A DNA stretch of 63,346 nucleotides, filler included, from Kipferlia bialata (lineage: Eukaryota): the NCBI GenBank assembly GCA_003568945.1. It is 3 parts of 3 records of this genome, joined end to end, with 100 filler letters (N's around TTAATTAATTAA, not from the genome) between each part and the next. Parts side by side here need not be neighbours in the genome. Positions count along the whole stretch, not along the records: positions 1 to 23,341 come from BDIP01000260.1; 2 more parts are not named here. The stretch is one strand, 5' to 3'. The translations under genes and the position numbers were made by a program. The notes under the pieces are model-generated. The model was not told the DNA's origin. It did not search any database and saw only the letters and a list, made by a program, of their open reading frames with translations. How positions within the stretch are numbered: the stretch's first letter is position 1; each line of letters starts with the position of its first letter. Positions 159-56,041 of this stretch are shown in pieces.

Positions 159-286
159 AGGGTTTAGTGTGTGAATGTCTTTGTCCGTAAGGATCAATAA
201 AAACTATATCTCACTGATGTACATCACACAATAAGGGTTTAGTGTGTGAATGTCTTTGTCCGTAAGGATCAATAAAAACTATATCT
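159..286. repeat. 53-bp perfect direct repeat (159-211 and 234-286)
   Basis: AGGGTTTAGTGTGTGAATGTCTTTGTCCGTAAGGATCAATAAAAACTATATCT occurs twice, 22 bp apart. Confidence 0.9.
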
Positions 287-477
287 TGGTATCATATATA
301 CATATATATACATATGTATACATACTACCTGTATATATAAATATATGTACATATAGATTCAACCATACCTGTTAGGCTTGATGGGTATCAGGATGGGTGT
401 CTGTGTCTTGGTACCATACTCACACACACCAATATATACATACTATACTCTCTCTCTCTCACACTCTATATATATAC

Positions 478-1849
478 CTGTTAGGCCTGATGAGTATGAG
501 GATGGGTGTCTGTGTCTTGGTGCCACCTGGGACAGGGGTGGGCAGGACAAAGGTGCCCTGGGATTAGTAGGGGTAGTACAGTGTAGGATATTAGACTAAT
601 ATATAATAATATATACACATATATATATTATATTATATTGTGTATGTGGTATCACCGGGTACAGGGGTGGGCAGCACAAAGGTGCCCTACGGTGAGAAAG
701 GACTCTACAGTAAAGGATACATGCATACAAATACACACATATATATATACATTCGTGTATATAGATACAGGACATAGCAGCCCTGGTGATGAGGTGAACT
801 ATATATATATAGAAAATACTGTGTATACAAGAATATATACCTCTATCCCCTGCAGGCTCTTGGTGGGGTATGCCCTGGCCCATGTGTTGAACCATATATA
901 TTATATATACACTTACTATATATATACTATATCCATATACATACCTCTATACCCTGTAGACTCTTAGTAGGGTATGCCCTGGCCCATGTGTTGAACCTCT
1001 TGACCACACCATACTTGAGTGCCCATTTAACCTAGGGTGAATATATATATAGTGTATATATACATAGAGAGAGAGAGAGAGAGAGAGGTATTGTCTTAGT
1101 AATACAGCAAATGTGTTGAACCTCTTGACCACACCATACTTCAGTGCACACTTAACCTATAGTCAGTATATGAATACATATATATATACATATATATAGA
1201 TATACATATATATACATAGAGAGAGAGAGAGAGAGAGAGAGTTGAACCTCTTGACGACACCATACTTGAGCGCCCACTTGACCTATTGTCAATATATAGT
1301 ATACATATTTATACATATATATAGAGAGAGACAGAGTGAGAGAGAGAGAGAGCTGAACCTCTTGACCACCCCGTACTTGAGTGCCCACTTGACCTAGGGT
1401 AGGTATAATACACACACACACATATATATATATAGATACATAGATATATAAAGAGAGATAAATGAACCTCTTGACCACACCATACTTGAGTGCCCACTTG
1501 ATCTGTGGTAGGTATAAAGCATATATACAAATATATAGATACACACGTTGGTACTGTGTAACGTAGTGTGGGGGCTAGACCATGCTTAAGTGCCCACTTG
1601 ACCAAGGAGGCAGATATATAGTATAATGAAGAGAGAGAGAGAGATGGAGAGAGAGAAAGAGAGATATGAACCTCTTGACGATACCATACTTCAGTGCCCA
1701 CTTAATCTAGAGTAAATATATGATATAATAGAGAGAGACAGAAATAGATGGAGAGAGAAAGAGAGAGAAAGAGAGTACCTTTGTGACGGGTGATGTGGTG
1801 AGGTTGTCGATGTGACATATACACATATATACACATAATATAGAAATAC

Positions 1850-1894
<45 letters not shown>

Positions 1895-4800
1895 CCTTTG
1901 TAACGGGTACTGTGCTGAGGTTGTCGATGTGGACGTGGAGGTGGGTGCCCTCACTGGGTGTGAGTGTATGCAATATATACATATATATATGTGTGTATAT
2001 ATTTTGAAAATTGAATGTAACTTTTGAGATTCAGATGCTGAGAAAACCATATATATATGAGTGAGTGTACATACCCAACAGGTTCCAATAGTATCGATTA
2101 TTACGCATAAGCATACCCCACTGATGCCACCAGGGATGGCACAGACACTCTCACATTGACCAGGTCATATATACATATATAACCATTCGAGTATATACAT
2201 ATATGTGTGTGTGTGTACATACCCGACTGATGCAACCAGAGATGGCACCGACACTATCACATTGACCAGGTCCTTCTTGGTGCAGCATGAAACAGCCATG
2301 GCCTGGGGGTAGAATATGTACATCAATACTCGTAATGAATATTAGTATGAATAATCATAGTGTAATATAGACACTCAGTAGAGTATCACGAAAGTTCTTG
2401 GTGCAGCAGGACACAGCCATGGCCTAGGGATAAATATACATATATATACATATTACAATGCATATAATCTACTATATATATAGGGTATTGGTGCAGCAGG
2501 AGACAGATATGGCCTGGGGGTCATTATTGAAGTGATAATATAGCACATTGCATACACAGTACAAATGCAGTACTATATAGACCTGGCATGTTGATACTAT
2601 ATACACTATCATGCACTCTCTCTGTACCTGTGCACTCATTGGAACAGGCTCTCCAGGCCTGGCGGGATCCATGGGGAGGGGGAGGTACCTTGAATCAGAT
2701 ATGGGTATATATATACAATGCAATGATAATAGAATACCTATCTATATATCAATTATTAAGTATATACTATAATCATAGAGTAGTATATATATATGAATAT
2801 TCCAATATGCATAGCAGGATCCATGGGAAGAGGAGTGTGAACCTAGAGGTAAGGCACAGTATCAGATAACCTAGGGTGGGGTGTTGATATATATGTGTAG
2901 AATAGATGTAGGGGTAGGTAAGGAGGGAGACAGAGACAGATAGAGAGAATGCCTTGCCTGCCACCAGGGGGAGGTAGGACATATACACTGGCACAAACGT
3001 ATATTTGTACTAACATATAAATACATACATACATAGAATGTCACTGGTATATATATGTATGTATATATATACATTGGAAACAAATACCGGACCTGCCGCC
3101 AGGGGGAGGAAGGACATACACACTGGCACCCAGCTTGTCATCCATGCCTGACATAAGGGTGTAGAGGGGGAGAGAGAGAGAGAGAGAGAGATGCGACACC
3201 TGCCAGCTGTTAGAATATACAACTTATGATACTTGAGTCTCTATCACCGTACTGCCTTCGATTATGGGTCAGAATTTTCAGATCACCATCTAGACAAAGT
3301 ACCTCACACATAAACAAATACACTAATGTGAACGAATCTATATATAGAGAGAGAGTGTGTATATATAGAGAGAGAGTGTATATATATACTGATACTGATC
3401 CCCGTACCGCCCTTGATTCTAACCACCATCTTGACAAAGTATCTGTATTGTATATGTGTAGAACATAAGTACAATTATAACATATATATATTTATATAGT
3501 ACAAATAGTACATGTAGACCATATGTACTATATGATATAGTATATATATCCATATATACATACCCCCCTTGATTCTGACCACCATCTTGACAAAGTATCT
3601 CACATTGTCGGCTGGCTCATGATCTTCGACCTTTCTGGGTGTAAAAGAGTGTAGAGAGAGAGAGAGAGACGGTCATTGCATCATTGGCGGAGTACCCCGC
3701 TCAAGGATATCTGCTTATATCATATGTATGAATGTTCACCTTCCTGGTACAGTCATTGCATCATTGCCGGAGTACACGGACCAAGGGAGGTTAGGGGGTA
3801 CGGTGGTCTAAGTAAATGAGAAGGAGAGAGAAGGGAGTGGTAAAAAGAATGGGATAGAGGGAGAGAGAGAACATAGTGAAGAGGCAAGAAGGGGGGAGAG
3901 GGAGAGTGGCTCACCTGGATGAGAACACAGGGGGGGGGAGAGAACATGGTGGCAGTGAGAGGGAGGGAGAGAGAGAGACTTGGGGGAAATGAGAGAGAAG
4001 GAGATATAGAGAGAGAGATTCTCACCTGGATGGGGAATGTGAGTGCCTGGCCAGCTGACACGGCAGTCACATCCTGGGCATAAGTGGGATAGGGAGAGAG
4101 GGGGAGAGAGACGGAGAGAGAGAGAGAAAGAGTGCCTGACCAGCCGAGAGGGCAGTTACATCCTGTATTTGTCAGTGGGAGAGCACATATAGATATAGTA
4201 CTCAGCGAGAGGGGGGGGGGAGAGATACAGGAAGGGGGGGGGGGGGGGGGAGATTGAGAGACTCACCTGCACAGAGAGGAGCTCCTGGTTCACAAGGGAA
4301 CGCCTGGGAATCAGATAGAGACGTGGTGATATATGGAGATAAACACAGTGTGACATGGTGACATAGAGAGAGTCATTACATATAGTGTACCCAATTCTAG
4401 TCTTCGGCAGAATACACATGCACTATATATAGATACATAAACTACCCACCTGTTGACGGTCACCCCCCTCTCGCCCTGCACAAAGACATGCTCCTCTCCA
4501 AAGAGGGAGAGAGACACCCTAGAGTGAGAGAGTAGTATAGAAGGGAGAGAGTGATAGAGAGATTGAGAGCAGTAGTCACAAAGACATGCTCCTCTTCAAA
4601 GAGGGAGAGAGCTATCCTAGAGTAAGAGATGAAGAAGAGTGATAGTGAAGAGAGAGTGATAGTGTAGAGAGAGAGTGAAGAGGGAGAGAGACACCCTATG
4701 GTGAGAGTAGTATATAGTATAGAGAGAGTGAAAGTGTAGAGAGAGACCCTGCAGTGAGAGAGTAGTATAGTACAGAGAGTGATAGTGACGAGATAGAGTA

Positions 4801-5375
4801 CATGCTCCTCTCCAAAGAGGGAGAGCGCTATCCTTTGGTGAGAGAGACACTCTGCAGTGAGAGAGTAATATAGAAGGGAGAGTGATAGTGAAGAGGGAGA
4901 GCGAAGAGGGACACTGTAAGTGAGAGAGATTGCATGCTCCTCTCCAAAGAGGGAGAGAGACACCCCAGAGTGAGAGAGGGTGAAGAGGGAGTGTGATACC
5001 AACGAGGGAGAGAGCTATCCTATGGTGAACAAAGGGATAGAGTGAAGACAGTGAACGGATAGTAGTTGACACAGATATCAATTGACATTGAGAGACACAC
5101 TGATAGACGGTTCACTGTACCCAATCAATTATATACCCAAGAGGGTTATAGTTTAGCACCGCCAACCCACCCCGTGACAGTGATGTCCTTGCTGGGGGTG
5201 TATGACACAGTGGCCTGAAGAGGCTCGCCTGAGGGTGAGAACATAGAGTATATATAGAGAGTGAGGATGATACATAACTGTGTCATCAAGTACATCAATG
5301 TTCACCTGGTGTGTAGAGGGGTATGGCCCTGTCCCACTGTACTGACATTTTGCCGGTGGCGCTGAAGTATCCCAT
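478..5375 (-). CDS. Arrestin-domain (alpha-arrestin-like) protein, at least 13 exons, 3' end not found in window
   Basis: Manual splicing gives MGYFSATGKMSVQWDRAIPLYTPGEPLQATVSYTPSKDITVTGVSLSLFGEEHVFVQ...ALTFPIQTTVPPNLPWSVYSG...VRYFVKMVVRIKG...CCTKKDLVNVIVSVPSLVASVGEGTHLHVHIDNLSTVPVTKVKWALKYG...GTFVLPTP. This matches Arrestin_N (YxPGE, LxLxGxE, FP...PxxLPxS, RYxVK) and Arrestin_C (GExxxxxxxIDNxS) patterns. Confidence 0.8.
840..1711 (-). repeat. Exon-echo array around arrestin exon 945-1031
   Basis: Six copies of the exon head (VKWALKYGVVKRF) lie near 1111, 1241, 1351, 1461, 1577 and 1666; five keep the acceptor AG. One exon-tail-plus-donor copy lies at 841-892. Copies are separated by (TA)n/(GA)n. 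Confidence 0.9.
4560..5025 (-). repeat. Exon-echo array upstream of arrestin exon ~4450-4518
   Basis: Repeated acceptor + (V/I)(S/A)LSLF(G/E)EEH fragments near 4577-4620, 4800-4834, 4932-4968 and 5001-5023, in a GA-rich minisatellite. Confidence 0.85.
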
Positions 5376-5720
5376 GTTGATGATACACAGTGGGTAAAAC
5401 TATTGGAAGAGAACTAGGCCAAGGGTCATTCTCGTCAATTTGCCAAAAACCCTTAATTGAACCCTTAGTTTCCAAGATATGTACAGACATCGTGCCGGTA
5501 GCGCTGAAGTATCCCATATTCTAGTGGATAGTAACACTGGTATAAGACTCGTTGTCTCATGTCCAACGAGTTGTGCCAAAAACTCACTTCAACCCTTATT
5601 TACATTGCATAAATGAAGAATGAAACGAACCCGTGTTCTATTCTATTGAACACACTCCTCTCTTAGTGGTGAGTCACCACTGGATACAGGCCGTCTACTT
5701 CAGGTATGTATCTTAATCGT

Positions 5721-8153
5721 CTACTTTAGGTATGTATCCACTGGGACGACACCAAGGACAGCGGCAACAGGGGGGAAGACTATGGCATCAGCAATGTGGA
5801 TATACATATATAGCAGATATATATGTGACATACCACAAGTGTAAGGCTATCATGCAAATAATGATATATGTACATATACGTGTACAATATGTCTGACACA
5901 CCAAGAAGATTGGGTGATTAGGGATGTATATATGATATACTGTCAGTACATCATAGTATATATATTATACTGACATACCAACACAGTTACGCATCTCGTC
6001 CTACAGTATATAACTAACAGTATGTTTAGCAGGCACCAATCAAATAGGTATGGTTAATAGTCGTTCTGAAAGATAGTATATTAATATAGTATATTAATAT
6101 TGTATATTAATACATAGTAGACATGCTCTGAATATGAACACTAATAGCATACCGAGGAAGCCCCTCATCTCGTTCTCAAGTCTCTGTCTGGTGGCCTGTG
6201 AGTGCTTCAGCTCAAGGACCTTGGTCGTCAGTGTTAGTAGTACTATAAGACGAGAGAGGGAACAAGGACATGGGGTAAGATATCCATAATGAGAGCATTC
6301 TTACCTTCTTCTGGTACCTCTGGACCTGTGTCACTGCATCTGTCTTCAGATCCTCACTCAGCCTGGGATGAGGGTGGAGTATACTGCATATAGTAGTCAT
6401 CATTCAATCAATATGTATATGCTTCCCGAAGCAAACGGTCGAAATGATCATGTCAGATACTGCAATATATGATACCTTGGGTTCTTGGCCGCTACCTCAG
6501 CCACTAGCACATCATACTCTGCACCCTCAATGTCAGAGTCTGAGACAGGGGGAGTTGCCTGAGGGTAAGGACTGTATGCAGGTAGGTTAAAATTCAAACA
6601 TTTTTGTTGGTATATAGTACTGAATATCATGAGTCACAGAGTTGAATATATACCCTAACCTTGTAGTCCTCCAGCCACTGCAGTCCCATGCATTTACGGA
6701 TAGTTACCTATACACATGATTGTATACACAAATATATTTGTGTGTATATACTTACTCCTTACCTTGTACTCCTCCAGCCACTGCAGTGCCTCCTTCTGCA
6801 GAGGTGCCAGCTTGGCAAGTGCCTTTAGGAGAGTATCGCTCTGCCTCTGCACCCTTTCACACTCAGCCATGTCCACCCCACTTACACCCCCTCTAACACC
6901 TATACAGTGCTGGATACGGTGAGAGCATGCAATGAGAGGGCCTATCAGACGCAGTACCCCCCTCACATCATTGTTATAGTCCTCCACCACGACGTACTTG
7001 ACCTTGTCAGGGAGAGAGAGACTCATGGTGTCACGGGGAAGGGGGATAAGGCCAATGCTCTCGAAGCTGGACACTAGCTCCTGAGCCTCAACGACAGAGG
7101 ATAGAGCCACGGAATGGTCACGCTGAGAGCTGAAGGTCTGGCGTCAACATTTGAATCTGCCAGTCCAAGCCTATTCTTATCGTTGGACTAATACCTGAAG
7201 AGAGGCGTGGAACTTCGTGCAGAGACCGTACAGGGAGTCGACCAGGGCTCCGCAATCCTCAGAGACAACCTAGAGGGGTCAGAAGTAGGAGAGAGAGCAA
7301 TGCACTCTATATGGAGAGAAGGTAGGGGCTGGGAGGTAGTATACTTGTAATGTAGTGCAAAGTGTACCTTCTCCAGTGTGTGCTCAGACATGAATGCCTG
7401 CACGGCTGCCAGCTGAAAGGTGAGATAATATGGGGGAGGTTGTACATCACTACCAAACATACATGCCGCTTAGTGTCTCTCTCAATGTCAATGGTACAAG
7501 CATACCGTATGAGATACTCATATTTATACACAGTAGGAGACACATGGAAGCCACAATAACAATTAGTGACCTTCTTCTGCAGGCCTGCATCTCTGGATGC
7601 ATCTGTCTCTCTCTGTCTCTCTCTCTCTCTATATATATATATACATATGAGCAATGTACACGTATACACACTACCGTTTTCTGAAGGGCTTTCTGATCTC
7701 TCTCTCTCTCAATGTATATTTATATACAATCATATATATATTGTATATGCATCCTCACTACCTTCTCCTGGAGGGCTGTGTGACTGGATGTCTCTAGGGA
7801 ATCTAGAGCAGAGTACAGGGCTGGAGGGTAAGTGACGTTAGTACACAAATACCGTAAATGTCTATTGTGCCATACATACTATGTATATATAGACTAAATG
7901 TAAATATTTCAATGTATATGTAGAGGGGGAGGGATGACTGAGGTACTGACACAATCCACAACATCAATAGACTTTGCCTACGAATGTTCACATTATTCAA
8001 TGTATACTTCCCCACTATATACGTTATGAATCATAGATACCCTCGACATCCATTGCCTTGACCCTCTCCGTGAGAGCCTTCAGTCTCTCACTGGGAGTGA
8101 GAGGCATACTACAAATTCCATACTTGCACAGTGCACAACCCGTGTAGAGGGTG

Positions 8154-8184
<31 letters not shown>

Positions 8185-9695
8185 CATCAGCACTATGCAG
8201 GTACCTCATCTCTGGGTTGAAGCCCTCAAAGTGCTGCATCAGTGTCTGCTCCTCACCCTATGGGTCAGCACTACATAGTATAAGGATACACTACACATAC
8301 TGATACTAAATAGAGTTTCTACATTCTGTAGGTATGTATCCTACTATGGAGAGAACTACATATTAGAAGGCGAGAATCAATATGTGTATATATACATACA
8401 CACACTTATATGTATATACACAAATACCTCTGAGGCACGCTGTCTCTTGGGTACATCTGCAATTATAGCAGCAAACTCTCCCACAGTTTCTGTCTCCTGT
8501 CCCTCTGCAAGTCTGCGGGTCACATCGTCGTGAAAGAGGGCGTCAAGCTCCTCTTTCAGAGCCTCCTCCTTGATACCCTCCTCACACTCGCGGAAGTTGA
8601 ATGGACTTATGGGCCTAGGTCTTGACTTGAGGCTCTGGTCTTCAGCCTAAGGGTCAGATTCTACTGCTCTCTACATATGTATATATATATATATGTTTGG
8701 TGAGACATATTAGAAGGCGAGAGTTCATATATACTATACATATGATATATATATATATATATATACATACCTCAGAGGCACCCTCTCCCTTTGGGTCACT
8801 GCACTCTACAGAGATGGACACAGATGCTGCCAGAGTATCAGTCTCCTGTCCCTCTGCAAGTCTGCGGGTCACATCATCGTGAAAGAGGGCGTCCAGCTCC
8901 TCTTTCAGAGCCTCCTCGTTGAGACCCTCCTCACAGTGGCGGAAGTTGAATGGACTTATGCACCGAGATCTTGACACAAGACTGCCCTCCTCAGTAACAA
9001 GTTGTTACTAACAACCTCCACAACCGCACTCTGAGTGGGAAGGCCATCAAGAGAGAGGCCACACCATCTGGTGTCGTCCTCGAGGAGGGCCTCAACCTTC
9101 TCAATGATTCTCAATGAAACTATCGTTGAAGATACCAGCAAGGACATCGGCAGCAGTGGAGGGGGAGGATAGGATAAGAGCCTTCTCACTGGTAGGCTCA
9201 GTGCATGTCCCGGTGGCAGTCTCTGGCGAGGGGGGGACGGTTACACCAGTGACATCAGCGATACCAGTTGCATTTGGGCCAATGTTGGGAATGAACCTCT
9301 TAAGTGCCCTGGCCCTCTTGACCTCGGCCTCGTAACGGGCTAGGTGCTCTCTGGCCACAGAGTTGGTGACACGGATGTGGTGCTTTCTACACTCTCTGGT
9401 GGGTTAGATAGATACATTTAATTATATATCAAGTATTAGAATGAACGCAATATATATGCCGTATCTTATACTGTTTCTCACTGGAGGAGACTACAGATAT
9501 CACACATACGCAGCCAAGTATATATACATACTCATGGAAGTATTACTATGTGAGTATACCATACATAGACCATATAGTAAAGTTGTTAAAGTAGGAGAGT
9601 GCATACTATCAATAATGTGCACAGTACCTGGTGTGTGCCACCAGCTCAGTGGTAGGGATCATTTCACTGCAGAACATGCACTGGATAAGTTCCAT
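5721..9695 (-). pseudogene. Multi-exon gene (N-terminal C2HC zinc-finger-like motif, helical/coiled-coil body) disrupted by 10-bp and 14-bp insertions in exon 2
   Basis: Starts MELIQCMFCSEMIPTTELVAHTREC (CxxC...HxxxC). Exon 8771-9395 reads through only if 9108-9117 and 9001-9014 are removed. Downstream exons (8428-8646, ~8204-8257, ~6763-7138 etc.) are open, and the end is probably LGVVPVDTYLK* at 5721. Confidence 0.6.
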
Positions 9696-17360: not shown

Positions 17361-18591
17361 TCATGGAGAGAATGCAAAGATGTCGTCATCGAAGAGGTCA
17401 GTGCTGACCTGGGGGTGAGGAGAGAGTGGCAATGTATAATACATATACTACATTTATACTATATGAACCTTATAGTATAGAGTATACCTGCTGCTGCTGC
17501 ATCCTGCGCCTCTTGCTCCTGAGTGCACTCCTGCCAGAGTGGCCGGACAGGTAGGGGTTGACACCCTGATATTAAGGGTCTAGAGAGAGAGAGAGAGAGA
17601 GAGAGTACTGTACGGATGACCGGACAGGTAGGGGTTGAATTGACACCCTGAAGATAACAACCAATTGATGCATATATACACATAAACACAACTATCACAA
17701 GAGAGACTCGTGCCTCAGACCCTGCGTCTACATATACATGCTATACCCCCACTAGTATATGTATATACATTTTCATAAATATACCTGAGACCCTGCGTCT
17801 CTCTTGTTGCCAGGTGTCCTGTGCATGGTGGGCTCTCTCTCCTCTTCTCTCTCTCTCTCTGCCTCAGCTGCTCTGGACTGACTCTTGCGGGAGGAGCGTC
17901 TGGGACGGCCTGGAGGGTTAGATACACTGACACATAGATACATATACATATACAGGTATCCTTAAATATACATATATTTAGAGGAGCGTCGGGGACGGCC
18001 TGGAGGGTTAGATACCTTGCAGATATATAGATATATATATATGTAGAGAGAGAGAGACACATATACATAGAGGAGCGTCTGGGACGGCCTAGAGGGTAAG
18101 ACATACAGCAGATATACATACATATATACATACATACATACATACATATATATATATCGGAGCGTCTCGGAGTGCCTGTGGGGTTAGATACACAGACAAA
18201 GAGATATATATGTACATATACTATGTATCCATGTACATAATTGTATATACCTCTTCCCCCAGGTGTGCGCCTTGTCACATTGGGCTGATCCTCCTCTCTC
18301 CTCCTGCCTCTGGCCTTGGGCCTAGAGGTTAGACAGAAGCAATAAGGGGGTAGAGAGAGGGAGGGAGAGAGAGACGCACACAGAGAAGGTAAACCTATTC
18401 AATTCAACATTATAGTAGACACAGTATACATATAGTGGCTGCCCCTGGCCTTGGACCTAGGGTTAGAGAGAGAGAACATATCCACATACATCCGTAAATA
18501 TACATAATGTAGCGATAGAGAGAGATAGAGAGAGAGCGTATACAATATCCGTACTTGTGTCTGACTGGCTGGTCCCCACTGAGACTGACAT

Positions 18592-18623
<32 letters not shown>

Positions 18624-19046
18624 TTATATATATATATACTTAAACGTATATATATGGAGAGAGAGATAGTACAACTATACAGAGACACATGTCCGTACTT
18701 GTGTCTGACTGGCTGGTCCCCACTGAGACTGACAGACCTCTCGAGGGCCCACAGACCCTGGGGGGTTAGAGAGCATATAGACTATAGTGTAATCAATACG
18801 AAGTATATACACAATACATGTAAAAATGGTAGAGAATACAGTACCTGAGACTCCGGCTGGTCTGACACCATGACTGATGATATAATAATGAGTACTTATA
18901 TATATACCCTATTTGAGTATATATAGTATATACTACATATACATACTATATATATACAATATCATACCTGAGACTCTGGCTGGTCTGACACCATGGCCAC
19001 AGTGGACTGGAGGGACGTGCCTAGGGTGAGAGAGAGATGGATATAT

Positions 19047-19079
<33 letters not shown>

Positions 19080-20654
19080 AAGAGAGAGAGAGAGAGGGAG
19101 AGAGAGACCATGGCCACTGTGGACTGGAGGGAGGTGCTTAGAGTAAGGTATATATATATATATATATATACAAAGAGAGAGAGAGAGAGAGACAGGCCTG
19201 GGGTGAGATATGTAGTGGTCGAAAGAGATACATGAGAGAGAGGACATGTATACATACACATGTACCTAGCAGGTCTGCACTTGTGGCTGGACTGGCAGCC
19301 ATCCTCTCCCTCTCCCTCTCTCTCTCTGCCTCCTCATCCCTGCTGGGGGTGAGAGCGGAATACAATACCCATCACAAGTACATACATATACATATACATA
19401 TATATATATATATACATACATAATCCACTCACTCTCTGCTGGGTGTTGAGGGTGCAGTGAGGGCCAGCGTATACACGTATATACATCTAGATATGTATAT
19501 GATATACATATATGTATATATATATATATATATATATCCACTCACTCTCTGCTGGGTGTTGAGGGTGCGGTGAGGGCCAGGGACTTGCGGTCCATGCTCT
19601 TGCTGGGAGGTGAGACAGTAGCAAATAAGACTATATACAATATCACACATATCTATACAGAGAGACAGATACAGAGATAGCGGTCCATGCTCTTGCTGGT
19701 GGTGAGATACAAGTACAATACAAGATATACTAGTGCATTTAAGGAGAGAGAGAGAGATATCAATGTTATACTGGAGATGATAATTGTATGATTACTCTGT
19801 TACGTAATGTGTACAAATAGAGTGCATAGGTGGTGACCTGCCTCTTGACGCAATACAATTGAATGAGAGAGAATACATATATGTATACACATACACATGT
19901 GTACCTGCGAGACTTGGCCACTCTGCCACTGTATACAATATATATATACATTGTATACATTATATATAAATATATGCATATCTATATCTATATATATACA
20001 TACATATACATACAATACCTGCGAGACTTGGCCACTCTGCCACTGTACGACCTCTCCCTCTCCCTCTGTGTGTGGGTGGGACTAGAGGGGGGTCTGTCGG
20101 AGTCCCTAGGGGTCAGGGATACTATACACACACACATAAATATGTATATATACATTACATATATAAGACATAACGGGGTTGAAGGGGGGTCTGTCGGTGT
20201 CCCTGGTGGTGAGATGTATATGTGGGATACATCATATATATACACTGTCAGTCCCTAGCGGCGAGGGAACCTCATGAAGTACATAGATATAAAGATATAT
20301 ATACATACACCCATACATATAAACACAATAAAGAAATCAGAGGAGGGGGGTCTGTCGGAGTCCCTGGTGGTGAAGGATACATAATGATGACACAAAAGTC
20401 CGAAAGGATGTATGAAGCAAGTGTTATACATATATATACATTTATACATAATGCCTCTTACCTGTCCATCACGAGGGGAGTAGTGTCGTTGACTGTCTGT
20501 GTGCCAGATATCAGGGGCATGGTGCTCATACCACTCTCTACCTCTCTCTCTCTCTCCCTCTCCCTCTCTCCCACACTCAGGATGTTGATGGAGGTGGGGG
20601 TGGAGTGGGTGCTGGCTGTGAGACAAATGTACACACATATATATACTATATACC

Positions 20655-20686
<32 letters not shown>

Positions 20687-22125
20687 CCATTACTATATAC
20701 TCAGGATGTTGATGGAGGTGGGGGTGGAGTGGGTGCTGGTATTAGAAATTCATACACACATATATGAATACCATATATGAATACCATATACCATATATAT
20801 ATAGATATATATATTACAATATATCACTATATACTCAGGATGTTGATGGATGTGGGGGTGGAGTGGGTGCTGGGGGTAAGGGGATGTATACATGTATATA
20901 TACATAGATATATACTATATATACCACCCCATACCTTGTAGATGATGCACTGCGACGGGATGCACGCTGACTGCGCACACTCTTCTGGGACTGGTGGTAA
21001 GTGTATAAATGTACAATACTTATATACTATATATACATTTATGATGAAGAAAACGCAATAATAGAAGAGTCACTCCATATATATCGAGTGAATGCAAAAT
21101 TACGTATATGTATTTAATAATAATACCTTGTGGGCCACTGTGACCCGCTCTGCCTCTCTCTCCCTGTCCCTCTCTCTGAGCCTCTCGGCATCACGCTCAG
21201 CAGCCTGAGGTGAGATATAGACGGATAAGACACCAATGTGAACATATATATGTATATATGGATGAATATACTATACTGCTTACTCACCTGCAGGTCCCCT
21301 GTGAGCACTCTCTCCCTCTGCTGCAGGGCAGATATCTGAGGGATGGGAGGGTATGTATGTGTATGTATATATATGTGTGTGTATGTATTACTATATAANN
21401 NNNNNNNNNNNNNNNNNNNNNNNNNNNNNNNNNNNNNNNNNNNNNNNNNNNNNNNNNNNNNATATAAAAGAGTATATATGTGAGAACCCTCGCCCTCTGC
21501 TGCAGGGCAGATATCTAGGGGGTGAGAGGGTATGTATGAATATGTATATATCTAAACATACATGAGATCTGAGCTCCTTGGCTGGGTTGGTAAGCTATCT
21601 CTCTCCCTCTCTCTCCATATATGTATTAATATACCTATATATAAATTCTATATAATCCTACATACGGATAATAATACCTGAGATCTGAGCTCCTTGGCTG
21701 TGTTGGCACCCTCAGACAGGGCAGCCTGGGGGGAGAGGGGACAGGCATGTATATATCTAGTTATATGTAAATATACATGAACATATTAATATACTATTGA
21801 ATGTGAGAATGCTATAGTATATGTGTTGGACCCCTCAGACAGGGCAGCCTGGGGGGAGAAGATATACACAATACCCTGCTCATGATAGATGTATATATAG
21901 TGAGATAGTCCCTCACCTTGAGATCATTGACCTCCTCCCTGCACTCTGCCACCCTGGCATACTATGTATACATACATGACACACGACTATATATATTATA
22001 TAGTATATGATTATATATATATATATATATATCATATATACATGTATGATATATTACCTTCAGGTCATTGACCTCCTCCCTGCACTCTGCCACCCTGGCA
22101 TACTATATATATACTACATATATGG

Positions 22126-22163
<38 letters not shown>

Positions 22164-22235
22164 TATATGTACCTTTAGTCCGTTGACCTCCTCCCTGCAC
22201 TCTGCCACCCTGGTATTCTATATACAAATATATAC

Positions 22236-22266
<31 letters not shown>

Positions 22267-23310
22267 CCCTTATATATATACACATATATATATGTACCTT
22301 CAGGTCATTGACCTCCTCCCTGCACTCTGCCACCCTGGCACACTATATATATACTACATATATGGTATATATATATATATATATATACAGTACCTTCAGG
22401 TCATTGACCTCCTCCCTGCACTCTGCCACCCTGGCATTGCACTGACGGGCAAGGGTCTCAGACTGATGTCAGTATGAATATATTATTATATATGGTTATT
22501 ATACAGTGGATACAAATATAATGACACTCACAAATACATAAATACATGTGTACACTCCAGATACATGCACTGACGGGCAAGGGCCTCAGACTGGGGTCAG
22601 TATGTATATACATAGAGACATATCCATATATACACACTGTGTATATAGGCACTGGCGGGCAAGGGCCTCAGACTGATGTCAGTATATGCACATGAATACT
22701 ATATACAAGAATACAAATATACTGTGGATATGTGTACTGTAGATATGTGTTCTGTGCAGGGCAAGGGTCTCAGACTGATGTGATAGTATATATATATATA
22801 TAGACACACATCCATATATACACAGTGTATATAGGCACTGACGGGCAAGGACCTCAGACTGAGGGTGAGTGTATACAGCCTATCTATAGAGTAGAAGGTA
22901 TTAACATACATGATATGTACTGTATATATACACATATTTACATACATATACCTGCTCCCTGGCCCCCTCCCTCTCTCTCTGTCTCTATATACATACATAC
23001 ATATATATATATATCTGTCTCTCTCTCTATAAATATATATTATTATGTATACATATATATACCTGCTCCCTGGCCCTTGCCATGGCCTCTCTCTCTCTCT
23101 CTCTCTGTATGTACATATATATATCTATATTAATATATACATATATACACCTCCTCACTGAACCTTGCCATGGCCTCTCTCTCTCTCTCTCTCTCAATAT
23201 ATATATTAGTATATAATGCTATGCATGTATATAAATATATTCTTAATAGTGGTGATACATACCTGCTCCCTGGCCCTTGCCATGGCCTCTCTCTCTCTCT
23301 CTCTCTCTCT
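17361..23310 (-). CDS. Coiled-coil protein with basic, S/TP-containing C-terminal tail (5' part cut off by scaffold end)
   Basis: Short exons give SETLARQCNARVAECREEVNDLK, AALSEGANTAKELRSQ, ISALQQRESAHRDLQ, then a tail ...VTRRTPGGRGRPRRSSRKSQ...GVNPYLSGHSGRSALRSKRRRMQQQQVSTDLFDDDIFAFSP*. Confidence 0.6.
21937..22865 (-). repeat. Exon-echo arrays on both sides of exon ~22394-22462
   Basis: Four downstream copies of GCCAGGGTGGCAGAGTGCAGGGAGGAGGTCAATGACCTGAAG/gt-like sequence (near 21937, 22057, 22172, 22297). Four upstream copies of cag/TCTGAG(A/G)(C/T)CCTTGCCC (near 22570, 22650, 22757, 22837). Confidence 0.9.
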
Positions 23311-23341: not shown

Positions 23342-23441
23342 NNNNNNNNNNNNNNNNNNNNNNNNNNNNNNNNNNNNNNNNNNNNTTAATTAATTAANNN
23401 NNNNNNNNNNNNNNNNNNNNNNNNNNNNNNNNNNNNNNNNN
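23342..23441. other. Artificial scaffold linker (N44-TTAATTAATTAA-N44)
   Basis: Exactly 100 nt, with an all-frame stop cassette at 23386-23397. Identical to the linker at 46770-46869. Confidence 0.95.
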
Positions 23442-23499: not shown

Positions 23500-23909
23500 A
23501 CAATATATTTATGTTACATATACCTGTCTATATATACATGTCTGACCCAGGACTGCAGGTCCAGTCCTGGTAATATATAGAATTCATATATATGTATAGT
23601 ATATAGTGAACCGTATTTAGTATAGTGCGTATATATATCATAAATATATGAATATACCTGTCTGACCCAGGACTGCAGGGCCAAACCAGGTACACACATA
23701 TGTATGTATTTATAGCATCGAGTATATATATATATATATGTATATATATGTGTATACGTGTATATGTATACATATATACCTGTCTGACCCAGGACTGCAA
23801 GGCCAAACCAGGTACCTAAATATACTAATATATCTGTATGTATTTATAGTATCGCATGTATATGTATATAATGTTTGTATGTTTGCATGTATATACCTGT
23901 CTGACCCAG

Positions 23910-25040
23910 GACTACAGGGGCAACCCAGTATTCGAGGAGGAGGTTACCGTATACACTGTCAGAGAGGGTGTTCTGCACGTATTCTGGAGCAACCAAACAC
24001 ACTGGACATACTCCATGAGAGACGGGTGGCTGAAGGAGCCTACCCGCACACCGTGCAATGGTTGGCCGGCATTTGCTCAGGTATACGTACTGTATATACT
24101 ATTTTCCCCTTATGCAATACTATACACTATACATACTATATACACTCCCATAGTGGGTGGATTTGGAAGGTGAATGAATCATTCACTGAATGATCCTACT
24201 CAATATGAGTCTCATACCGTGCCATTTGAAGGAGGGATTTGCAAATGTATGGAAGTGATCACATATACATGGAATAACTGTGGGACTATATTTATCTCTC
24301 GGATACAAGAATACTTGTATTATACATCAACCATAGAGTTAGTGGGAATCCAAGTACTTAATTACTTGACCTAACATTTCTAACAGTCAGACCTTCGACC
24401 GACTCATATGTGTGTTCACCCCAAGAGGAGTGTGGGCATTCGACACCATCAGGTACAGATATATAGTACATAATTATATAGTATGTCAGGTATGTAATAG
24501 TATATATGTGAGAACATCAGAGACTGTGACCAGAGTATCTCTCTCTCTCTCTGTCTTTGTCTCTCTCCATCTCCCTCTCTCACCCTCAGTGGAGACTGGG
24601 CCATGCTGTGTGACGAGACTACATGCCGCACCTGGAACCTTAACTATGAGAGGGGGATGTCTGCACCATTAGGATTCAACACACTGCTGGGTGGGTGATA
24701 CTGAATCGTATACCTATACTGACGCTGACACTGATACTGACACTGACACTGACACCTAGATGTCTGGTCCACCATGGGTACTCAAGTGGAAGAGACAGAT
24801 GATCCCTCCCTCTTTGTGCACCTAGTCACTCTCAATGAGTCCATGATCTACCCTAGGTGGACCAACTGTCTAAGATACTACAAACTGTATGATATGTATA
24901 CTGTATGTATGATATGTTCTCAACTTACTCCAAGTCACGAGGAGGGGTGGGGGAGGCTACTCAGCTGGGACAAGGACTGGAGAGAGACACTGGGGGTCCG
25001 AGCGGCGGATGCGGTAAAGGGGGAGGCAGAGGGACAGTGA
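23910..25040 (+). CDS. 3' part of a kelch-like/beta-propeller hypothetical protein
   Basis: Exons read DYRGNPVFEEEVTVYTVREGVLHVFWSNQTHWTYSMRDGW, ICVFTPRGVWAFDTISGDWAML and LVTLNESMIYPSHEEGWGRLLSW, which are blade-like (hydrophobic strand, xYD...W). One exon junction (~24690-24760) could not be phased. Confidence 0.45.
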
Positions 25041-26324
25041 GAGAGAGGCAGAGAGACAGAGAGAGAGAGATCGTTGGAGGAGGATGAGGTGTAGAGGGCT
25101 CTGGTAATGGGATACCATAAGGCATGATGAGTTGGAGCACCGAGTGTAACAGCCAGAGGAATTACCCTGTAACCTATCGTGCAGCCGATTATTCTGTCTG
25201 ATAGACACTCAGTGTCTAAGACACTGTACTATACTTCTCTTCAAGAGTGCATCCACAATTCCTTGACAGTGATGAGCCAAAGTACTTGTATACTAGGTCA
25301 AGATGCTTTTTACACTGATTTATGACAGTGTGGGTATTATCTGTTCCCACATCTCTTGTATCTCTTCACAGCACTGTCTATGCGCACACTGTATGTCTAC
25401 TACTTACTGTGCCACTAGCACTCATGTAGTGTCGTGTCTGAAAAGCCCTTCTCTCTCACTCCCTCACTCGTGCCTCTATGTGTATACTGTACCAATAGCA
25501 CAAAAACGCATTCTGGTCTGAAATCATCTCCCTTATTCATCTCGATTCTGTTACAGCAGCCAGTTACAGTGTCAGCATCGGTTGAGATTATGACTCATTT
25601 GTGACGGTATTTGGCGACAGAAGAGCTTTAAAGATAATGCAAGTCTTAAACATAAACTATTTATGATAAATACGCCTTGCTCTTGTCATTGGATTAAGTT
25701 AATCATTTACTGAATGAGTAGAGAGTGACCAGAAAGAATTGTATAAGTAGCAGTGAGCGATACAGATACTGACACTGATACAGTGCACCTACCAATGTAC
25801 TCTCTCCGGCTCCAGTGTAGAGACAGCTGGTCTTCTACTGTTCAAGTTACAAAATCGCTAATGCATCGTGCACTTGAAGTGCATACATCTACCTATCTAG
25901 CATGTTTATATGAACACCCTTACTTGAGACGCCACCTCCAAATTATTTGGACCAAATATGACCATGGTCTATACACTATATAGTTGCTTCATAGTCAGTC
26001 ATTAGGCCATCTTTGCAAAAGAGAGTAGTTTGGCAGTTACAATGGTGCGTTCAATGAATGACACTAAAACAAGGGGATCTGACTGGTCCCCCAATCATTA
26101 GTGAGCGTCTAACTTGTCGGAAGTTCTGAATCAAAACAGTCGGAATAGATCAATATGCCACGTTAACTCTTCTCAGTTGCTGTCACTCTATATATGGGGT
26201 CTTATTGCCTCTCACCCATACGACTGAGCATTCGACTGCGTATACCTCTTCAAACACTGTATCAGTACTATTATGACGCGCCACCTGCCATCAGTGATGT
26301 TAAGTTAACATTGTTAACTATCCT

Positions 26325-27415
26325 TCAAGAGATGTTCCACGCTAGTGGAACCAGTACCCGGTTGGCAACCCTCAGAGCCTGTTGTCTCTTGGCCTTCCGT
26401 GCTCTCTGCCGTGCAAGATAGTCTACCAGCTTCTCCTCTGCTGCTACCCTCTCTCTCTCAGAAGCTGCTAACTGGCTCTGCAGGTGCTCCATAGCTGCAG
26501 CGTTGTCTGCCTTCCTCTTCCGAACCTCTCTCTCTCTCTCCTCGGCTTCTCTCTCCAGGCGTCTTATTGTCTCTTGTGCCGCAGCTAGCTCCGCTTCCTT
26601 CCCCTCTAAGTCCCTAGTTGCCTTCGACAGAGCAGTTGTAGATGCTGCCTCTCTCCTCTTGATCTCTGTCACCTCTTCCTCGGCCTTTTCGGCAGCATCA
26701 CTCCACTGTTGCAGAGACACGTCTCTCTCGTGCACCATCCACCTTAATGTCTCAACTGTCCCCTGACATCAGCGCGCTACCAGACGTGTATGATAATATG
26801 AGGATACTCGAATACTACGAAGTGACCAGAAATGGCTCATGGTGGACATACGACTGAAGCGTGCTGTGAAAGTAGTACACACTAGCCAGTACCTGTAGCT
26901 TGTGGTTATCAACCTGGTACTGGCGGGATATGCAGATCGCTGTCAACACTGCCTACGCATAAGGTGACAAAAAGAGGGGTACATATTCAGATAGTATCGT
27001 TCTTTGCTGGCTGTAAACAAGAGAAATGGTGCAGACGATGTCAGGACGCACCTCGCCAAGCATTAATGCTGGTGACCGTAATGACCACCAATATACACAC
27101 TCTATCTTAGTCATTACACTATCGTACAACTCACCTGATCGGTTGCAGACCCATTGGTGGGAGAGTCCCCGTAGAGGTATACAGGACGTACTGCGGATTA
27201 GAAGTGTACAATTTACAGTCATGACATGTGTTTCTATACCATTGCGAACCCAGGAATATTGCGAAAGCGTATGAAGTACAATATTGGCAAGGAAAACAAG
27301 AGTGTAATATACCTGTACATTCCGAGTTGAGATCAGGGGCCAGAGACCCCTGGGAGTATGCAACAGCCAGCTCACACTGAGATATGAGTGATGCAGGTTT
27401 CAGTAGTCTATCCAT
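26325..27415 (-). CDS. Hypothetical coiled-coil protein
   Basis: ORF 26325-26738 is strongly heptad-like (AEKAEEEVTEIKRREAASTTALSKATRDLEGKEAELAAAQETIRRLERE). Upstream exons are uncertain. Confidence 0.4.
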
Positions 27416-27707
27416 TGAAAGCCTCACAATGAGATACCTCCTCTACATGTTGTGTCATAACTCTAGAGAGATCATCATCTCCATACCGTAGTGGGAATGA
27501 CCGGAATGTCATCAGAAGGTGACAGGGACACGTGAGGAGGCGCGTCATCTGAATGATTAGAGGATAGTGCCTGAGACGCCAGGATAAGGAAATGAGAGGA
27601 AGTGGAGTAGTATAGTATACGTCTACACTGTAGACTCTACAGCTACACGGATGACGTAACCGAGATGCAAAACATGTATAGAGTTAGTATTGCTCTATCA
27701 TAGGGAT

Positions 27708-28077
27708 TCAAACACCTAAAGGTGACAGTGGATACTTACCAAATCCAGCGGCCGGCACATACGTGTACCCGCTGTGGCCTCCTTGGATGGGGTGTACATC
27801 CAGTAGGGCATCTCTCTCTCTCTCTCCCCTCTCTTCAGTCTGGTCAGTCCACGTGTATGTCTCTGACTCATCGTAAGGCTCATCACCATTAGGAACAGCG
27901 CCCCGGAAACTCTGGAAGAAACGCATCTCCTATGTTGTGGGAAGAGTAACGATCACCGTCGACATTGTGCATACAGTCAACAGTGTAGAGACCATTCTTT
28001 GAGGGGTTCTCTAAGAGAACTTCTCTTTGCCAACTGGATTTGACACATACAGAACCAGACTCTGGTTCAGTTAGCAC
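27708..28077 (-). pseudogene. Possible degenerate coding fragment (two overlapping frames)
   Basis: Non-repetitive, coding-like sequence split across ORFs 27889-28077 and 27708-27926, with no obvious intron between them. Confidence 0.25.
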
Positions 28078-28427
28078 ACAGTGTTTGAGTCAGGGAAACA
28101 GTCTCATGTACAATCACCTGCATGAAATAATTGCTGAATAGTATTGAATTATTCATTACTATTGAATAGTATTGTCCTCTTTTAGATCCATAATGTCGCG
28201 GCAGTGCATCGACCAGTTGCTAACACACCTTGTTACTTATAGTATTACAGTGCTAAAGATATATATGGACAGAAGAAAGATTTATGCAGGCAGGCATGCG
28301 CCGCATGCGGTCCAACTCGACAATCAAAATCAACAAAGGGGCCGGCCAAAAAATGTCATCAAAAATGACTGCCCCTAAAATCAGATACGGGTGTGCCTTC
28401 AGGTTCTCCCTCTCTCTCTCTGCTGGC

Positions 28428-31400
28428 ATGCTGCAGCCCCTGAACAGCTTTGTGCACATCCCTGACACTGTGCAATGCCACTACCCCTTTGGGAATACCC
28501 CTAGCCACCCGATGCCCCTGGTGCCGGTGGGGGAGGGGGGGGTATGTCATGAATCTGTATCTGCATATATATCACTTACTCTTTTGACTGGCCATTGCCC
28601 TATGCCCCTGGTGCCGGTGGTGGAGGGGGAGGTGCGGCATACATATCCACAAGTGTCATACTGCAAGGGGCAATAGTGATTATACCTTCTTCACTGGTAA
28701 TTGCAGTGCTCACTCCAGGCTCCGTCGTACCTGTTACTTGGCTGTGGAGACGCCAGACACATGTAAGTTACCCCCTCCCACACACACAGACGCGCCTTCC
28801 TCTTCCAATGTATTCACATGTTCACTCCCAAATAGGTTGCTTAAGACAAGTTACTGTCGTATCTCTTCCTCGGATGCGGGAGTCCTGTCAATTCAGTTGT
28901 TTTCACTCTCTTGATTGAGGGGGGGTCTCTTTCACCCCCCCCCTGTTTCCCATTCCCTCCCCTTGTTCTATCTCCCTTTTGTATGTATATGTGACCCTGC
29001 TATATAGGACTGGTAGTATTCACTTTCTATCTCTCCTTCTCTTCCCAAGTCTCTCTCTATCCCCCCCCCTATCCAGGTATGAAACCCTGCTGCATATGAA
29101 GACTTGATATTTTTCTCCATCCCCAGCTCTCTCTCTCTCTCTTCCTAACTCTCTCTCTCTCCCTCCTTACCCAGGTATGACACCCTGCTGCATATGAAGA
29201 CTTCATATTCCTCACCATCCCCAGCTTTCTCTCTCTCTCTCTTCCTAAGTATCTCTCTCTCTTCCCAAGTATCTCTCTCTCTTCCCAAGTCTCTCTCTCT
29301 CTCCCTTACAAAGGTATGACACCCTGCTGCACAGGAGTGGCAACCACCACTTCACACTCAATGACATGCAGCCAGAGGTATCTCTCCCCTCCCCTTCTCT
29401 CTCCCCTCCCTCCTTATCATATACATATATATGTGTATATATATTGCTGTATATATATATATATACCTTCACACTCAATGACATGCAGCCAGAGGTACAC
29501 ACACACACACTCTCTCTCTCTCGTTCTCTCTCTGTCTCCCTCTTTCAAGTGTTGTGTATGCATGAATATCTACTCCTCCACCCTTAATGATATATATATG
29601 TATATATATCTATATCTATATCCCCCCCCTCTTCTCGTATGTTGAATGTTGAATATATGAATCGTCACCCTCAATTCATTTCCCCTTCCCTCCTCTTACC
29701 CAATCCTATACAGTCCTGACGTTCTTTGTCGTGTATCCATTTTTGACTCCCTCCCTCCCTCTCCCTCTCTCTCTCTCTTTCCCCCAGGTCCTGTTACGCG
29801 CCTTGATCCTGGTACATTCTCTCTATCTCTCTCTCTCTTTCTGACTCTCTCTTTCCACAGGTCCTGTGTCGTGCCCTGATCCTTGCTCACTCTGTCACCT
29901 GGTGGGGTAGACAGGATGGTGCCCCACCCAAGCGCCGTAAGCCCTATGCATCTGTTGCAGCATATCTGTGGAGAGTGCACTACAATGCATACCTGTCCCC
30001 CAAGGATCATGAGAGACTAAGGTACATACATATATTGGGTAGTGGTCTATTTGGTATTGCCAGACTGAGGTACAGGGGGGCTATATTCATGTTTCTTTAC
30101 ACATACAAACAGATACTGGAAATCTATTTATAGTGAGCTCGGATAGTTGTGTTAAGTGGTATCCCTCCCACCAGAGGAACACCAGAGACTCATGTATGTA
30201 TAGATTGGCACTATTACAGTACTCATATAGATCCTCTTACCTCCAGGGAGACCTGTCGGCGTCTGGCAGCAGATGTAACGGAGATGCTCTCCGTACCCAC
30301 CTCCTGTCCAGATGCATACCTCAGTCTGACCCAGCCCATGCCCCTCCCATCTCTGCCTGGGTACCTACTAGACAGGGGCACATGCATGTCTATCCTCCCT
30401 GTGCTCACTCTCTGGGGGGAGAGAGAGGGGGTGCCATTTCTCGAGGTATGCACCCTTCTATGTACATGTATGTATTATATTCATACTAGTATATATATAT
30501 ATGTATATATGTAGTCCTCTCTCACTGTCAGACCTGTGCCCGATCCAAACTTCCCCACACCCCATATACCATATATCCTAGGGTTTGCAGATAGCTATCA
30601 TTTGTGTTTGTGTATATGTATACCTCTCTTACCACCAGACATGTGCCCGATCCAGACTGGACCTGCACATCAGACAGTTCAGGGCATCGGACAGGTATGT
30701 TATAAGTTATAACAAGTAACAAGTACGGGGCAATAACATATATATATATACTACACCTATGTATATTCACATATGTTTATACATACATATATATACACAT
30801 CAGACAGTTCAAGGCATCGGACAAGTATGTTACAACACATCAGATATATAGTGGTACTGATACAATATAGCATCGGACAAGTACGTATCATATACTAAAC
30901 CATGTATCACATACTACACATCTATATTTTCGTATATATTCACATATATCTATATATACATCAGACAGTTCAGGGCATCGGACAAGTATGTTACAAGTAA
31001 TATATATACATACACATGTATTAATATACATTTACTGAATCTGATACACATCAGACAGTTTAGGGCATCGGACAAGTACGTATCATGTACTAAACCATGC
31101 CTTACTGCTACCCACAGATATGGGTGAAAGCACTCTAGCTGTATACATAGTAGCCAGTGTCAGTCTCTCCCCGTATACTCTGCCCTTCAGTTACTCTGCT
31201 GATAGAGAGATAGAGAGACTGACCCTAGGGGCATAGTGGAGAGAGCCAAGGACGGCCCACCCCGTGCATCCACATACAGCCTCAAGACCCTGTGCCAAGT
31301 GGCTAGGAAGGTATGTATATCATTTGATTTGTATATAGATAGAACCCTTTAGTGTCATAGTTGTATGTCGCGTCTGACATCCAGGTTGCTAAGAAGTCAG

Positions 31401-31453
31401 TGTGTGAATGTCGTTATAAATATATATATATAAGTATATATATAAGGTGTATA

Positions 31454-31494
<41 letters not shown>

Positions 31495-34400: not shown

Positions 34401-34723
34401 TATCTATATATGGAGTATTCAGTCATTCTCTGACTGGTACTGACTGGGCAGGGCAGACAGCCACTGTCACACACTCCCCAGACAATGAGTCACACCTGCA
34501 CAAGCTGCTACTGGGAGTACTCAGCAAGACCCATCCCACTGGGAAGGGCGTGGTAGGGTATATAAATATATATATATATAAATTATTTATATGTTTGAGT
34601 TTTCTGAAGAGACATCCCACTGGGAAGGGAGTAGTAGGGTAGGGTGTAAAAGTTGAATATTGCAGTACTATTTTGTGGCGTTTTGTAGTAGATATTCACC
34701 CCGAATTCTATACCGTCTATGTC

Positions 34724-34760
<37 letters not shown>

Positions 34761-38970: not shown

Positions 38971-39281
38971 TCCATTAGTCCATAGTCTGATTGACTGTAC
39001 TAAGTAGTAGTACTAGTTGGTCACGGGAGAGTACCCTTTCACGATACTCTGTCGCCTATTGCAGTCACAAGGCGTCAATATCTCAACCGATACTGACACT
39101 AAAACTGGTTGGAGTGTGCAAGAGAAACGATTATGGGAGAAGGAGAGATTTTCAGTCAATAGACTACAGGTGTACGAGTGACATAGTGTCTGCCTATATG
39201 TCTATTACTCTTCTTCCCCGATCCCCCTTTCCGTGTAACACGTTCACTTTGTTCATGACATTACTCTCCAGCTTGGATCAC

Positions 39282-43755: not shown

Positions 43756-43807
<52 letters not shown>

Positions 43808-44248: not shown

Positions 44249-44282
<34 letters not shown>

Positions 44283-44335
44283 CGCACCATTGGTGTGTTC
44301 CCAATGACCCCAGTCACATTGGGTGCAACCTCCAT
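39282..44335 (-). CDS. cysK: Cysteine synthase (O-acetylserine sulfhydrylase, CysK-type, PLP-dependent), about 16 exons
   Basis: [22 protein letters not shown]...[17 protein letters not shown] (PLP lysine), [93 protein letters not shown]. The last exon and stop are uncertain. Confidence 0.93.
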
Positions 44336-51331: not shown

Positions 51332-51370
<39 letters not shown>

Positions 51371-56019: not shown

Positions 56020-56041
56020 CTTGCCGTATTGCTACTGGTCG

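Follow-up and report, generated by a model that had tools for sequence, protein, structure and literature searches.

The DNA analysed here, called the window in the following, comprises 63,346 nt from Kipferlia bialata, a free-living fornicate for which 124,912 introns are given in the portions of its genome paper used here (PMC5874029). Three contigs are joined in the window at runs of N that enclose a six-frame stop linker (23342-23441 and 46770-46869), at which genes end, and the DNA is rich in introns and in TA/GA microsatellites. Inside the introns, partial copies of the adjacent exon were detected, for which the term echo is used: a head echo contains the start of an exon with its acceptor, a tail echo the end of an exon with its donor. 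On the minus strand, an arrestin-like gene (478-5375), truncated at the window's beginning, has 13 modelled exons, 10 of them with echoes (22 echoes, pN/pS 0.13); its first exon has only a predicted start. The reading frame of this gene was fixed by an RNA contig and by the annotation, whose protein P0002 includes the 256-aa model and matches Pfam Arrestin_C (E 7.6e-9). Also on the minus strand are the 3' part of a gene for a low-complexity protein (17361-22462) with echoes at 11 of 15 modelled exons, a PLP-enzyme gene (39466-44335) with at least 14 introns and echoes at nine of 15 exons, and a 14-3-3 gene (49928-51791), the model of which equals P0001 and shows echoes at three of eight exons; one 14-3-3 exon has 100% identity with a K. 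bialata protein. The PLP-enzyme gene, which we take to be cysteine-synthase-like, gave Pfam PALP matches under the curated cut-off on two of the three exons submitted. A gene of unknown function on the plus strand (29077-35623) displays head and tail echoes of the same polarity; this gene and the low-complexity protein gene were modelled by open-frame chaining only.

The exon at 945-1031 of the arrestin-like gene (29 codons, defined by the RNA contig and P0002) is accompanied by seven echoes, all on the minus strand. The single tail echo downstream (841-893) consists of the last 53 nt of the exon and a GT donor, lacks an acceptor and differs by five silent and no replacement changes; these are exactly the five codon differences named for 841-892 in an earlier note on this DNA. 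Upstream, six head echoes comprise the first 24-46 nt of the exon with the acceptor. The nearest one (1111-1156, AG and 46 nt) shows the W>C exchange noticed before in the copy at 1111, along with two silent changes. The second and third (1241-1282, AG and 42 nt; 1354-1393, AG and 40 nt) have four silent changes each, and the count of four silent and no replacement changes per 13 codons reported for the copies at 1241 and 1351 was reproduced in both cases. To the copies at 1461 and 1666 nothing but V>I had been attributed beyond silent changes, and one such exchange is present in the fourth head echo (1463-1502, AG and 40 nt), two in the sixth and farthest (1667-1706, AG and 40 nt), in both cases beside silent changes. 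The fifth (1579-1602), described as a degenerate copy at 1577, is short, has lost its acceptor AG and differs by Y>H and three silent changes. Taken together, the seven echoes carry 23 silent and five replacement changes, with 6.8 +/- 2.2 silent changes expected if they are moved to random sites of the same base. The array represents seven different haplotypes, and all four gametes were found in five of the six informative site pairs.

Alleles or paralogs could have been stitched in tandem by the assembler, an objection that the earlier note had raised against its own reading. The introns are rich in microsatellites, the GA microsatellites of 1037-1460 are not bridged by any of the DNA contigs listed, so that the order there is unconfirmed, and the DNA run is possibly the source of the window itself, in which case independence is confined to the assembler. 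Nevertheless, contigs from this different assembler cross the junctions of echo, spacer and exon without a single difference and at full single-copy depth, which contradicts stitching. One DNA contig of 759 nt covers 360-1015 with no differences and has the tail echo and the exon in line, and another (1467-1623) joins the fourth and fifth head echoes. Every head echo is found on a contig of its own that has the flanks of the window, at depths of 357-455, with 441 for the nearest head echo, 455 for the second and 403 for the third; unique DNA nearby has 294-431. Words common to two copies reach a depth of 900 in the DNA run, and no further variant was seen in the eight of ten DNA records viewed. 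Stitched alleles would show half the depth and at most two versions, whereas seven versions are present, and they would not be expected to take the form of half exons that strictly keep one polarity, contain stops and have lost splice sites. An assembly artefact is therefore hardly credible. At the RNA level, a contig of 1084 nt joins the exon at 945-1031 to the exons at 478-557 and 1896-1953 with no differences, and its offsets follow the 12-exon gene model to the base. Since this model is free of echoes, the RNA contig contains no echo sequence, and the transcript check for echo-specific variants suggested earlier came out negative at this exon. The RNA evidence consists of one contig for one gene, from a run that proved to be spliced, and minor isoforms are invisible in contigs. 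Thus, the seven echoes are confirmed as real single-copy DNA that is left out of the spliced RNA contig.

To determine the extent of the phenomenon in the window, 94 exons, each with an open frame, were modelled across 15 gene segments, and their flanking introns were searched codon-blind and without gaps, a score of 13 or more defining an echo. In total, 107 echoes were detected at 55 of the 94 exons, while 940 control pairs of an exon and an intron of another gene yielded none. Heads lie upstream (51) and tails downstream (49), and the seven internal echoes keep the same polarity. The proportion of 55 in 94 overstates the window, because some segments were picked for the presence of repeats; in the five genes modelled throughout, echoes were found at 36 of 57 exons. 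Echo density is specific for genes or regions, as almost no echoes and fewer microsatellites are present in 24100-28400, 36000-39000, 47000-49900 and 54200-61500. Four matches scoring 12-12.5 were left uncounted, as were a cluster of tail echoes at 23530-23928 with unresolved frame, another at 22939-23300 whose working exon lies beyond the contig break, and repeats at 8481-8975 and 159-286. A family of introners or transposon-derived introns was rejected as an explanation, since exons match their own introns only (none of the 940 foreign pairs). Local repeats number 170 in the 63-kb window compared to two in 158 kb of 56 metagenome loci, a weak control because these loci are mostly intron-poor.

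Echo units are spaced by 54-266 nt (median 111), and an echo covers 17-75% of its exon with a core match of at most 53 nt. Introns with echoes have a median length of 298 nt, those without 91.5 nt. Next to the splice site, echo and working copy share intron homology over a median of 9.5 nt in heads and 4 nt in tails, the spacer measuring about 80 nt. Even echoes with an identical exon part show intron-flank identities of no more than 0.66-0.71, and values of at least 0.8 with the intron of the working exon are reached by six of 50 heads and three of 49 tails. The flanks are closer to intron (0.56-0.59) than to the next exon (0.23-0.27); being intronic, they rule out an origin from cDNA or mRNA templates. 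The inner end of an echo adjoins a dinucleotide repeat more often than random intron does (p 2e-5), and the phase of the repeat extends 0.79 nt into the exon part compared to 0.33 nt expected (p 3e-6). A periodicity of 3 or 10 nt was sought in the unit lengths and was absent. Break points of heads and tails are shared within 1 nt in four of 18 cases (p 0.036); widening the limit to 13 nt gives 14 of the 18 (p 0.19 relative to a mid-exon null), and no positive correlation was observed. The exon at 22394-22462 (minus strand), flanked by four head and four tail echoes in an array at 21917-22858, is an example of abutting ends: three heads reach as far as exon base 24-25, and every tail begins between bases 24 and 26. 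Such cases hint at repeated breaks at one site, the test being marginal. The focal exon has a latent AG|GT at the break; the other abutting cases, inspected by eye, do not.

Most echoes keep a splice dinucleotide, AG in 42 of 50 and the donor in 40 of 49, and a plausible downstream donor is available for five of the 42 heads with AG. This would agree with echoes serving as alternative exons or splice pieces that are conserved as protein. Yet every echo has one splice site and covers no more than a part of its exon, five of the 71 replacements are stop codons, and the RNA contig has the length of the echo-free model, which makes such a use very improbable. Retention of the splice dinucleotides is even lower than predicted by neutral decay at 0.03 (p 0.009 for AG, p 0.002 for donors), and a comparison of the splice-proximal with the inner half of the echoes revealed no excess of conservation near the splice site. 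Echoes are not under constraint now. Tandem duplicated, mutually exclusive exons were also considered and rejected, as echoes lack the second splice site and cover 17-75% of the exon.

The differences between echoes and exons have a marked bias. As claimed in the earlier note, they are mostly synonymous, and over all 107 echoes 139 of 210 differences are silent (66%), with pS 0.186, pN 0.030 and pN/pS 0.16 (0.11-0.23 by exon-block bootstrap). The accompanying premise that neutral intronic DNA should change mostly at replacement positions had to be replaced: the ordinary null is a dead copy beside a protein-constrained exon, for which about 42% silent differences and pN/pS of ~0.5 are expected, and the data exceed that null too (p 7e-13). 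The bias persists if only unique changes are counted (0.17), if the focal exon is dropped (0.18), or if an echo of a first exon at 5480-5517, which may be non-coding, is left out (0.16). An artefact of mutation spectrum or codon composition was ruled out by a base-preserving permutation, which expects 55 +/- 6 silent changes among 210, by frame-shift controls (pN/pS 2.1-2.3), and by the distribution over sites: 103 of 546 fourfold sites differ compared to 35 of 1055 second positions, twofold sites show 28 silent and five replacement changes, and transitions and transversions at fourfold sites are balanced (52:51). Error-prone copying filtered by selection would require an error of ~13% per base. 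Comparisons of echoes with each other, like those with the exons, gave the value well below 1 that the earlier note had anticipated (pN/pS 0.19). The 52 echoes that are alone at their exon show 0.14 (pS 0.22; 81 of 116 differences silent, p 1e-9 against 42%). For changes private to one echo the ratio is 0.26 (p 6e-4 against neutrality), indicating that the echoes' own branches were once under protein constraint. Over 73 echoes, pS and pN are uncorrelated (rho 0.01). In seven of nine gene groups pS is far above pN, and the conserved genes are lowest, the PLP enzyme and 14-3-3 having a ratio of 0.09; the exceptions are group B with five silent and 11 replacement changes (p 0.004 against the rest) and group I with none and one. 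For 27 weaker matches, about half of which are expected by chance (48 in 564 control pairs), the ratio is 0.39, which gives a combined ratio of 0.20. A silent bias beyond the expectation for dead copies means that the copies had separate protein-coding histories.

Two sources of this history had been proposed in the earlier note, capture of diverged functional alleles by unequal recombination, and cycling of the echoes into the working exon, by which they would feel purifying selection. The first is the branch that fits best, by the silent bias in lone echoes, echo-echo pairs and private changes, by the four gametes and by simulation; allelic diversity itself was deduced rather than measured, since no second allele or strain was seen. 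The chances appear about even that echoes are demoted halves of once-working alleles, left by out-of-register recombination between diverged alleles. In such an event, one allele would be joined, from within its exon, to a position about 80 bases into the neighbouring intron of the other. A head echo would consist of one allele up to the exon point on its left and of the other allele from the intron onwards on its right; a tail echo would be the mirror image. The unit observed, a tandem of ~110 bp with its ends in exon and intron, whose inner junction lies next to TA/CT/GT repeats and shares 1-3 nt of their phase, could arise by exchange or template switch between diverged homologs, the exon and the intron repeat being joined through microhomology. 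If a chromosome duplicated its own DNA, the entire spacer would be copied as well; the short flank homology seen here therefore points to a junction between two alleles whose repeat-rich introns have ceased to align. The spliceosome would use the innermost acceptor and donor, as seen for one gene, so that the protein would remain unchanged and the event would be tolerated; reciprocal deletions and duplications of whole exons would be removed by selection. Both partners would have been protein-coding until the event, and their differences would be the allelic differences of the population, mostly silent; once the decay term is subtracted, they would amount to about 0.13 per silent site. Thereafter the echo would decay neutrally, as reflected in pN 0.03, stop codons and lost AG or GT, and fast turnover, whether by echo-exon deletion or by other alleles taking their place, would keep echoes young relative to allele divergence. 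The lack of correlation between pS and pN fits a pS set at capture and a pN set by later decay.

Forward simulations were performed with toy models (N=150, lethal replacements), which show the class of process, not its parameters. Allele exchange with fast turnover and a silent diversity of 0.13-0.22 gave ratios of 0.05-0.15 and pS of 0.11-0.23. For capture at a silent diversity of 0.13-0.21, pS was 0.16-0.23 and pN 0.015, with ratios of 0.07-0.11 for lone echoes and 0.12-0.15 between echoes. Slower turnover under allele exchange raised the ratio to 0.32-0.43 and capture at low diversity to 0.25, so that the fit depends on parameters. The second branch of the earlier note, clonal cycling by contraction, conversion or unequal sister exchange, by which the intron would be a working archive, agrees with the shuffling seen as four gametes in the focal array, and with donor-only conversion and slow turnover it produced 0.17-0.25 for arrays and 0.19-0.30 between echoes. 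It did not hold for lone echoes: all clonal simulations (contraction, two-way or donor-only conversion, unequal sister exchange) yielded ratios of 0.47-0.65 for these, compared to 0.14 observed (n=52), and a pS at or below about 0.08 compared to 0.22. Moreover, the stop codons, the retention of AG and donors below neutral expectation and the lack of excess conservation next to the splice site speak against selection on echoes, and clonal cycling is considered improbable. Silent partial copies beside an expressed exon with coding-like conservation are familiar from the pseudogene donor arrays used for gene conversion in chicken Ig V and trypanosome VSG genes. Those arrays are dedicated to diversification of one family, whereas echoes are found at housekeeping genes, are decaying and, when alone, did not fit a donor model in simulation. 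Echo variants may reach the working exon again when the DNA between echo and exon is deleted, though the proposed reading does not depend on it.

Echoes may also have been born by tandem duplication from the same or the sister chromatid, identical to the exon at first, with in-register crossing-over or exon-limited conversion with other alleles later swapping the working exon, so that the two would diverge as alleles do. In simulations with moderate exchange this gave 0.14 overall, 0.15 for lone echoes and 0.24 between echoes and fits as well (0.05-0.14). Consistent with such a birth, 20 of the 107 echoes are identical to their exon, some units copy each other including their spacers (22055-22144 and 22295-22384, 99%), and the nearest echoes diverge less than the farthest (pS 0.10 vs 0.18, p 0.06). 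However, few echoes keep the intron flank of the working exon, so that very fast turnover of flanks would be needed, and we regard this birth as rather unlikely. It would lead to the same inference about the population as allele capture, with a different birth. Exchange of alleles in some form, by direct capture or by sister birth with later recombination, is probable.

The capture of alleles proposed here requires a diverse population that exchanges alleles by sex or parasex. In the available parts of a survey of metamonads (PMC8516963), neither process is reported as directly observed in Metamonada; Ku-type end joining is given as missing, and fornicates are described as having two Dmc1 and meiotic genes and no Rad51A. 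Repair of this kind, lacking Ku and Rad51A, would be a plausible background for echo formation. A routine pathway tied to it, by which exons are broken, the partner's copy is nested inside the old one, old halves move outward in layers and stored variants flow back, is conceivable but tentative; introns would then grow from a sample of alleles, and a single genome would speak for sex and hyperdiversity in Metamonada. At the focal exon, the DNA run was searched for a second allele and yielded none; likewise, no heterozygosity was seen in 250-6000 in the DNA contigs, which drop rare variants. The sequenced culture thus looks haploid or homozygous at this locus. A search of metagenomes by the 14-3-3 protein revealed no close relative in 56 loci, the best identity being 67%. 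Two k-mer peaks are interpreted as diploidy in the portions of the genome paper used here (PMC5874029). In the window, 581 of 61,768 distinct 21-mers are two-copy words, and as such words echoes may add to the second peak. High silent divergence together with present homozygosity, and the diploid reading of the k-mers, would also be in line with a past hybridisation or polyploidy, in which homeologs of two subgenomes were exchanged and heterozygosity was lost later. Two subgenomes provide two haplotypes, but the focal array has seven; in addition, the private echo variants are silent-biased, and many serial events would have to fit into the short lifetime of an echo. A hybrid origin therefore appears doubtful. 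If allele exchange is correct, one genome offers a sample of the alleles of a population, with an estimated silent diversity of about 0.13-0.19, and echoes would be indirect evidence of allele exchange in Metamonada.

Duplicated splice junctions have been known as curiosities of single loci; here they affect over half the exons in several genes, and intron length is tripled. In anatomy, echoes are of the type known from intron 7 of human F7, where a 37-bp VNTR spans the border of exon 7 and intron 7 (Borensztajn et al. 2006, PMC1557585). As far as the sections of that report cover it, copies of the exon end with a donor remain silent in the intron and splicing takes the donor farthest upstream, which is also the case for tail echoes; the F7 repeat occupies one locus with near-identical units of fixed period that include the intron part. 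Kipferlia is set apart by scale, non-copied flanks and the silent excess: echoes are present at both exon ends and at more than half of the modelled exons, with periods of 54-266 nt, their intron flanks are barely homologous, and pN/pS is 0.16, not at least 0.5 as expected of copies that diverge as dead sequence. Models of intron creation by tandem genomic duplication have reportedly been put forward by Rogers and by Gao and Lynch. According to parts of a study of this process (Hellsten et al. 2011, PMC3265369), short duplications within genes do no harm, as they are spliced out. Echoes share this, but there an exonic duplication with a latent AG|GT creates a new intron, while echoes duplicate existing sites, are situated in introns whose two neighbouring exons the RNA contig joins, and lengthen existing introns. 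For the proposed junction, with offset breaks and short microhomology, a possible model is the joining of meiotic double cuts in mouse, described in part of a preprint (Lukaszewicz et al., 10.1101/2020.06.23.168138), by which ends, including those of homologs, are joined with 0-2 nt of microhomology and tandem duplications and insertions result. The mouse events, as given in the same part, are rare, mostly ATM-null and occur with Ku-type end joining present, and echo units lack a periodicity of 10 nt. A published description of the echo pattern in Kipferlia was not found in a search that covered literature other than subscription papers, and intron growth of this type is not mentioned in the portions of the genome paper used here (PMC5874029). 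The spliceosome is described as reduced, with 87 of 174 proteins, in sections of another paper (PMC6679479). Echoes offer thousands of natural pairs of competing splice sites for testing the choice of the innermost site.

Several further features were noticed in the window. P0002 combines two genes (5306-9400), the arrestin-like one and a coiled-coil-like one upstream of it; an ATG at 5375 and the RNA depth over 5305-5508 hint at a separate start of the former. The putative start-codon region and upstream sequence are duplicated (5338-5375 and 5480-5517, within 5338-5610), and echoes may form at gene starts too; a short repeat like this one follows a stop codon near 45090-45160. A 146-bp repeat (8481-8626 and 8830-8975, 91% identical) is coding in P0002 in both copies and is possibly an echo-type event with both copies kept as protein. 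The longest array introns of the arrestin-like gene are 1032-1895 and 4480-5030, the latter with five or more head echoes alternating with GA-rich subrepeats over about 650 nt. Internal stretches between short direct repeats are deleted in the echoes at 46269-46288, 46474-46492 and 42421-42466, which points to microhomology-mediated decay. In one case the modelled working donor is GC (40260) and that of its tail echo GT (40169). Finally, an exact 53-bp direct repeat (159-211 and 234-286) is unused by the RNA contig, and 1-140 belongs to a multi-copy element with a DNA depth of 1100-2600 and variants.
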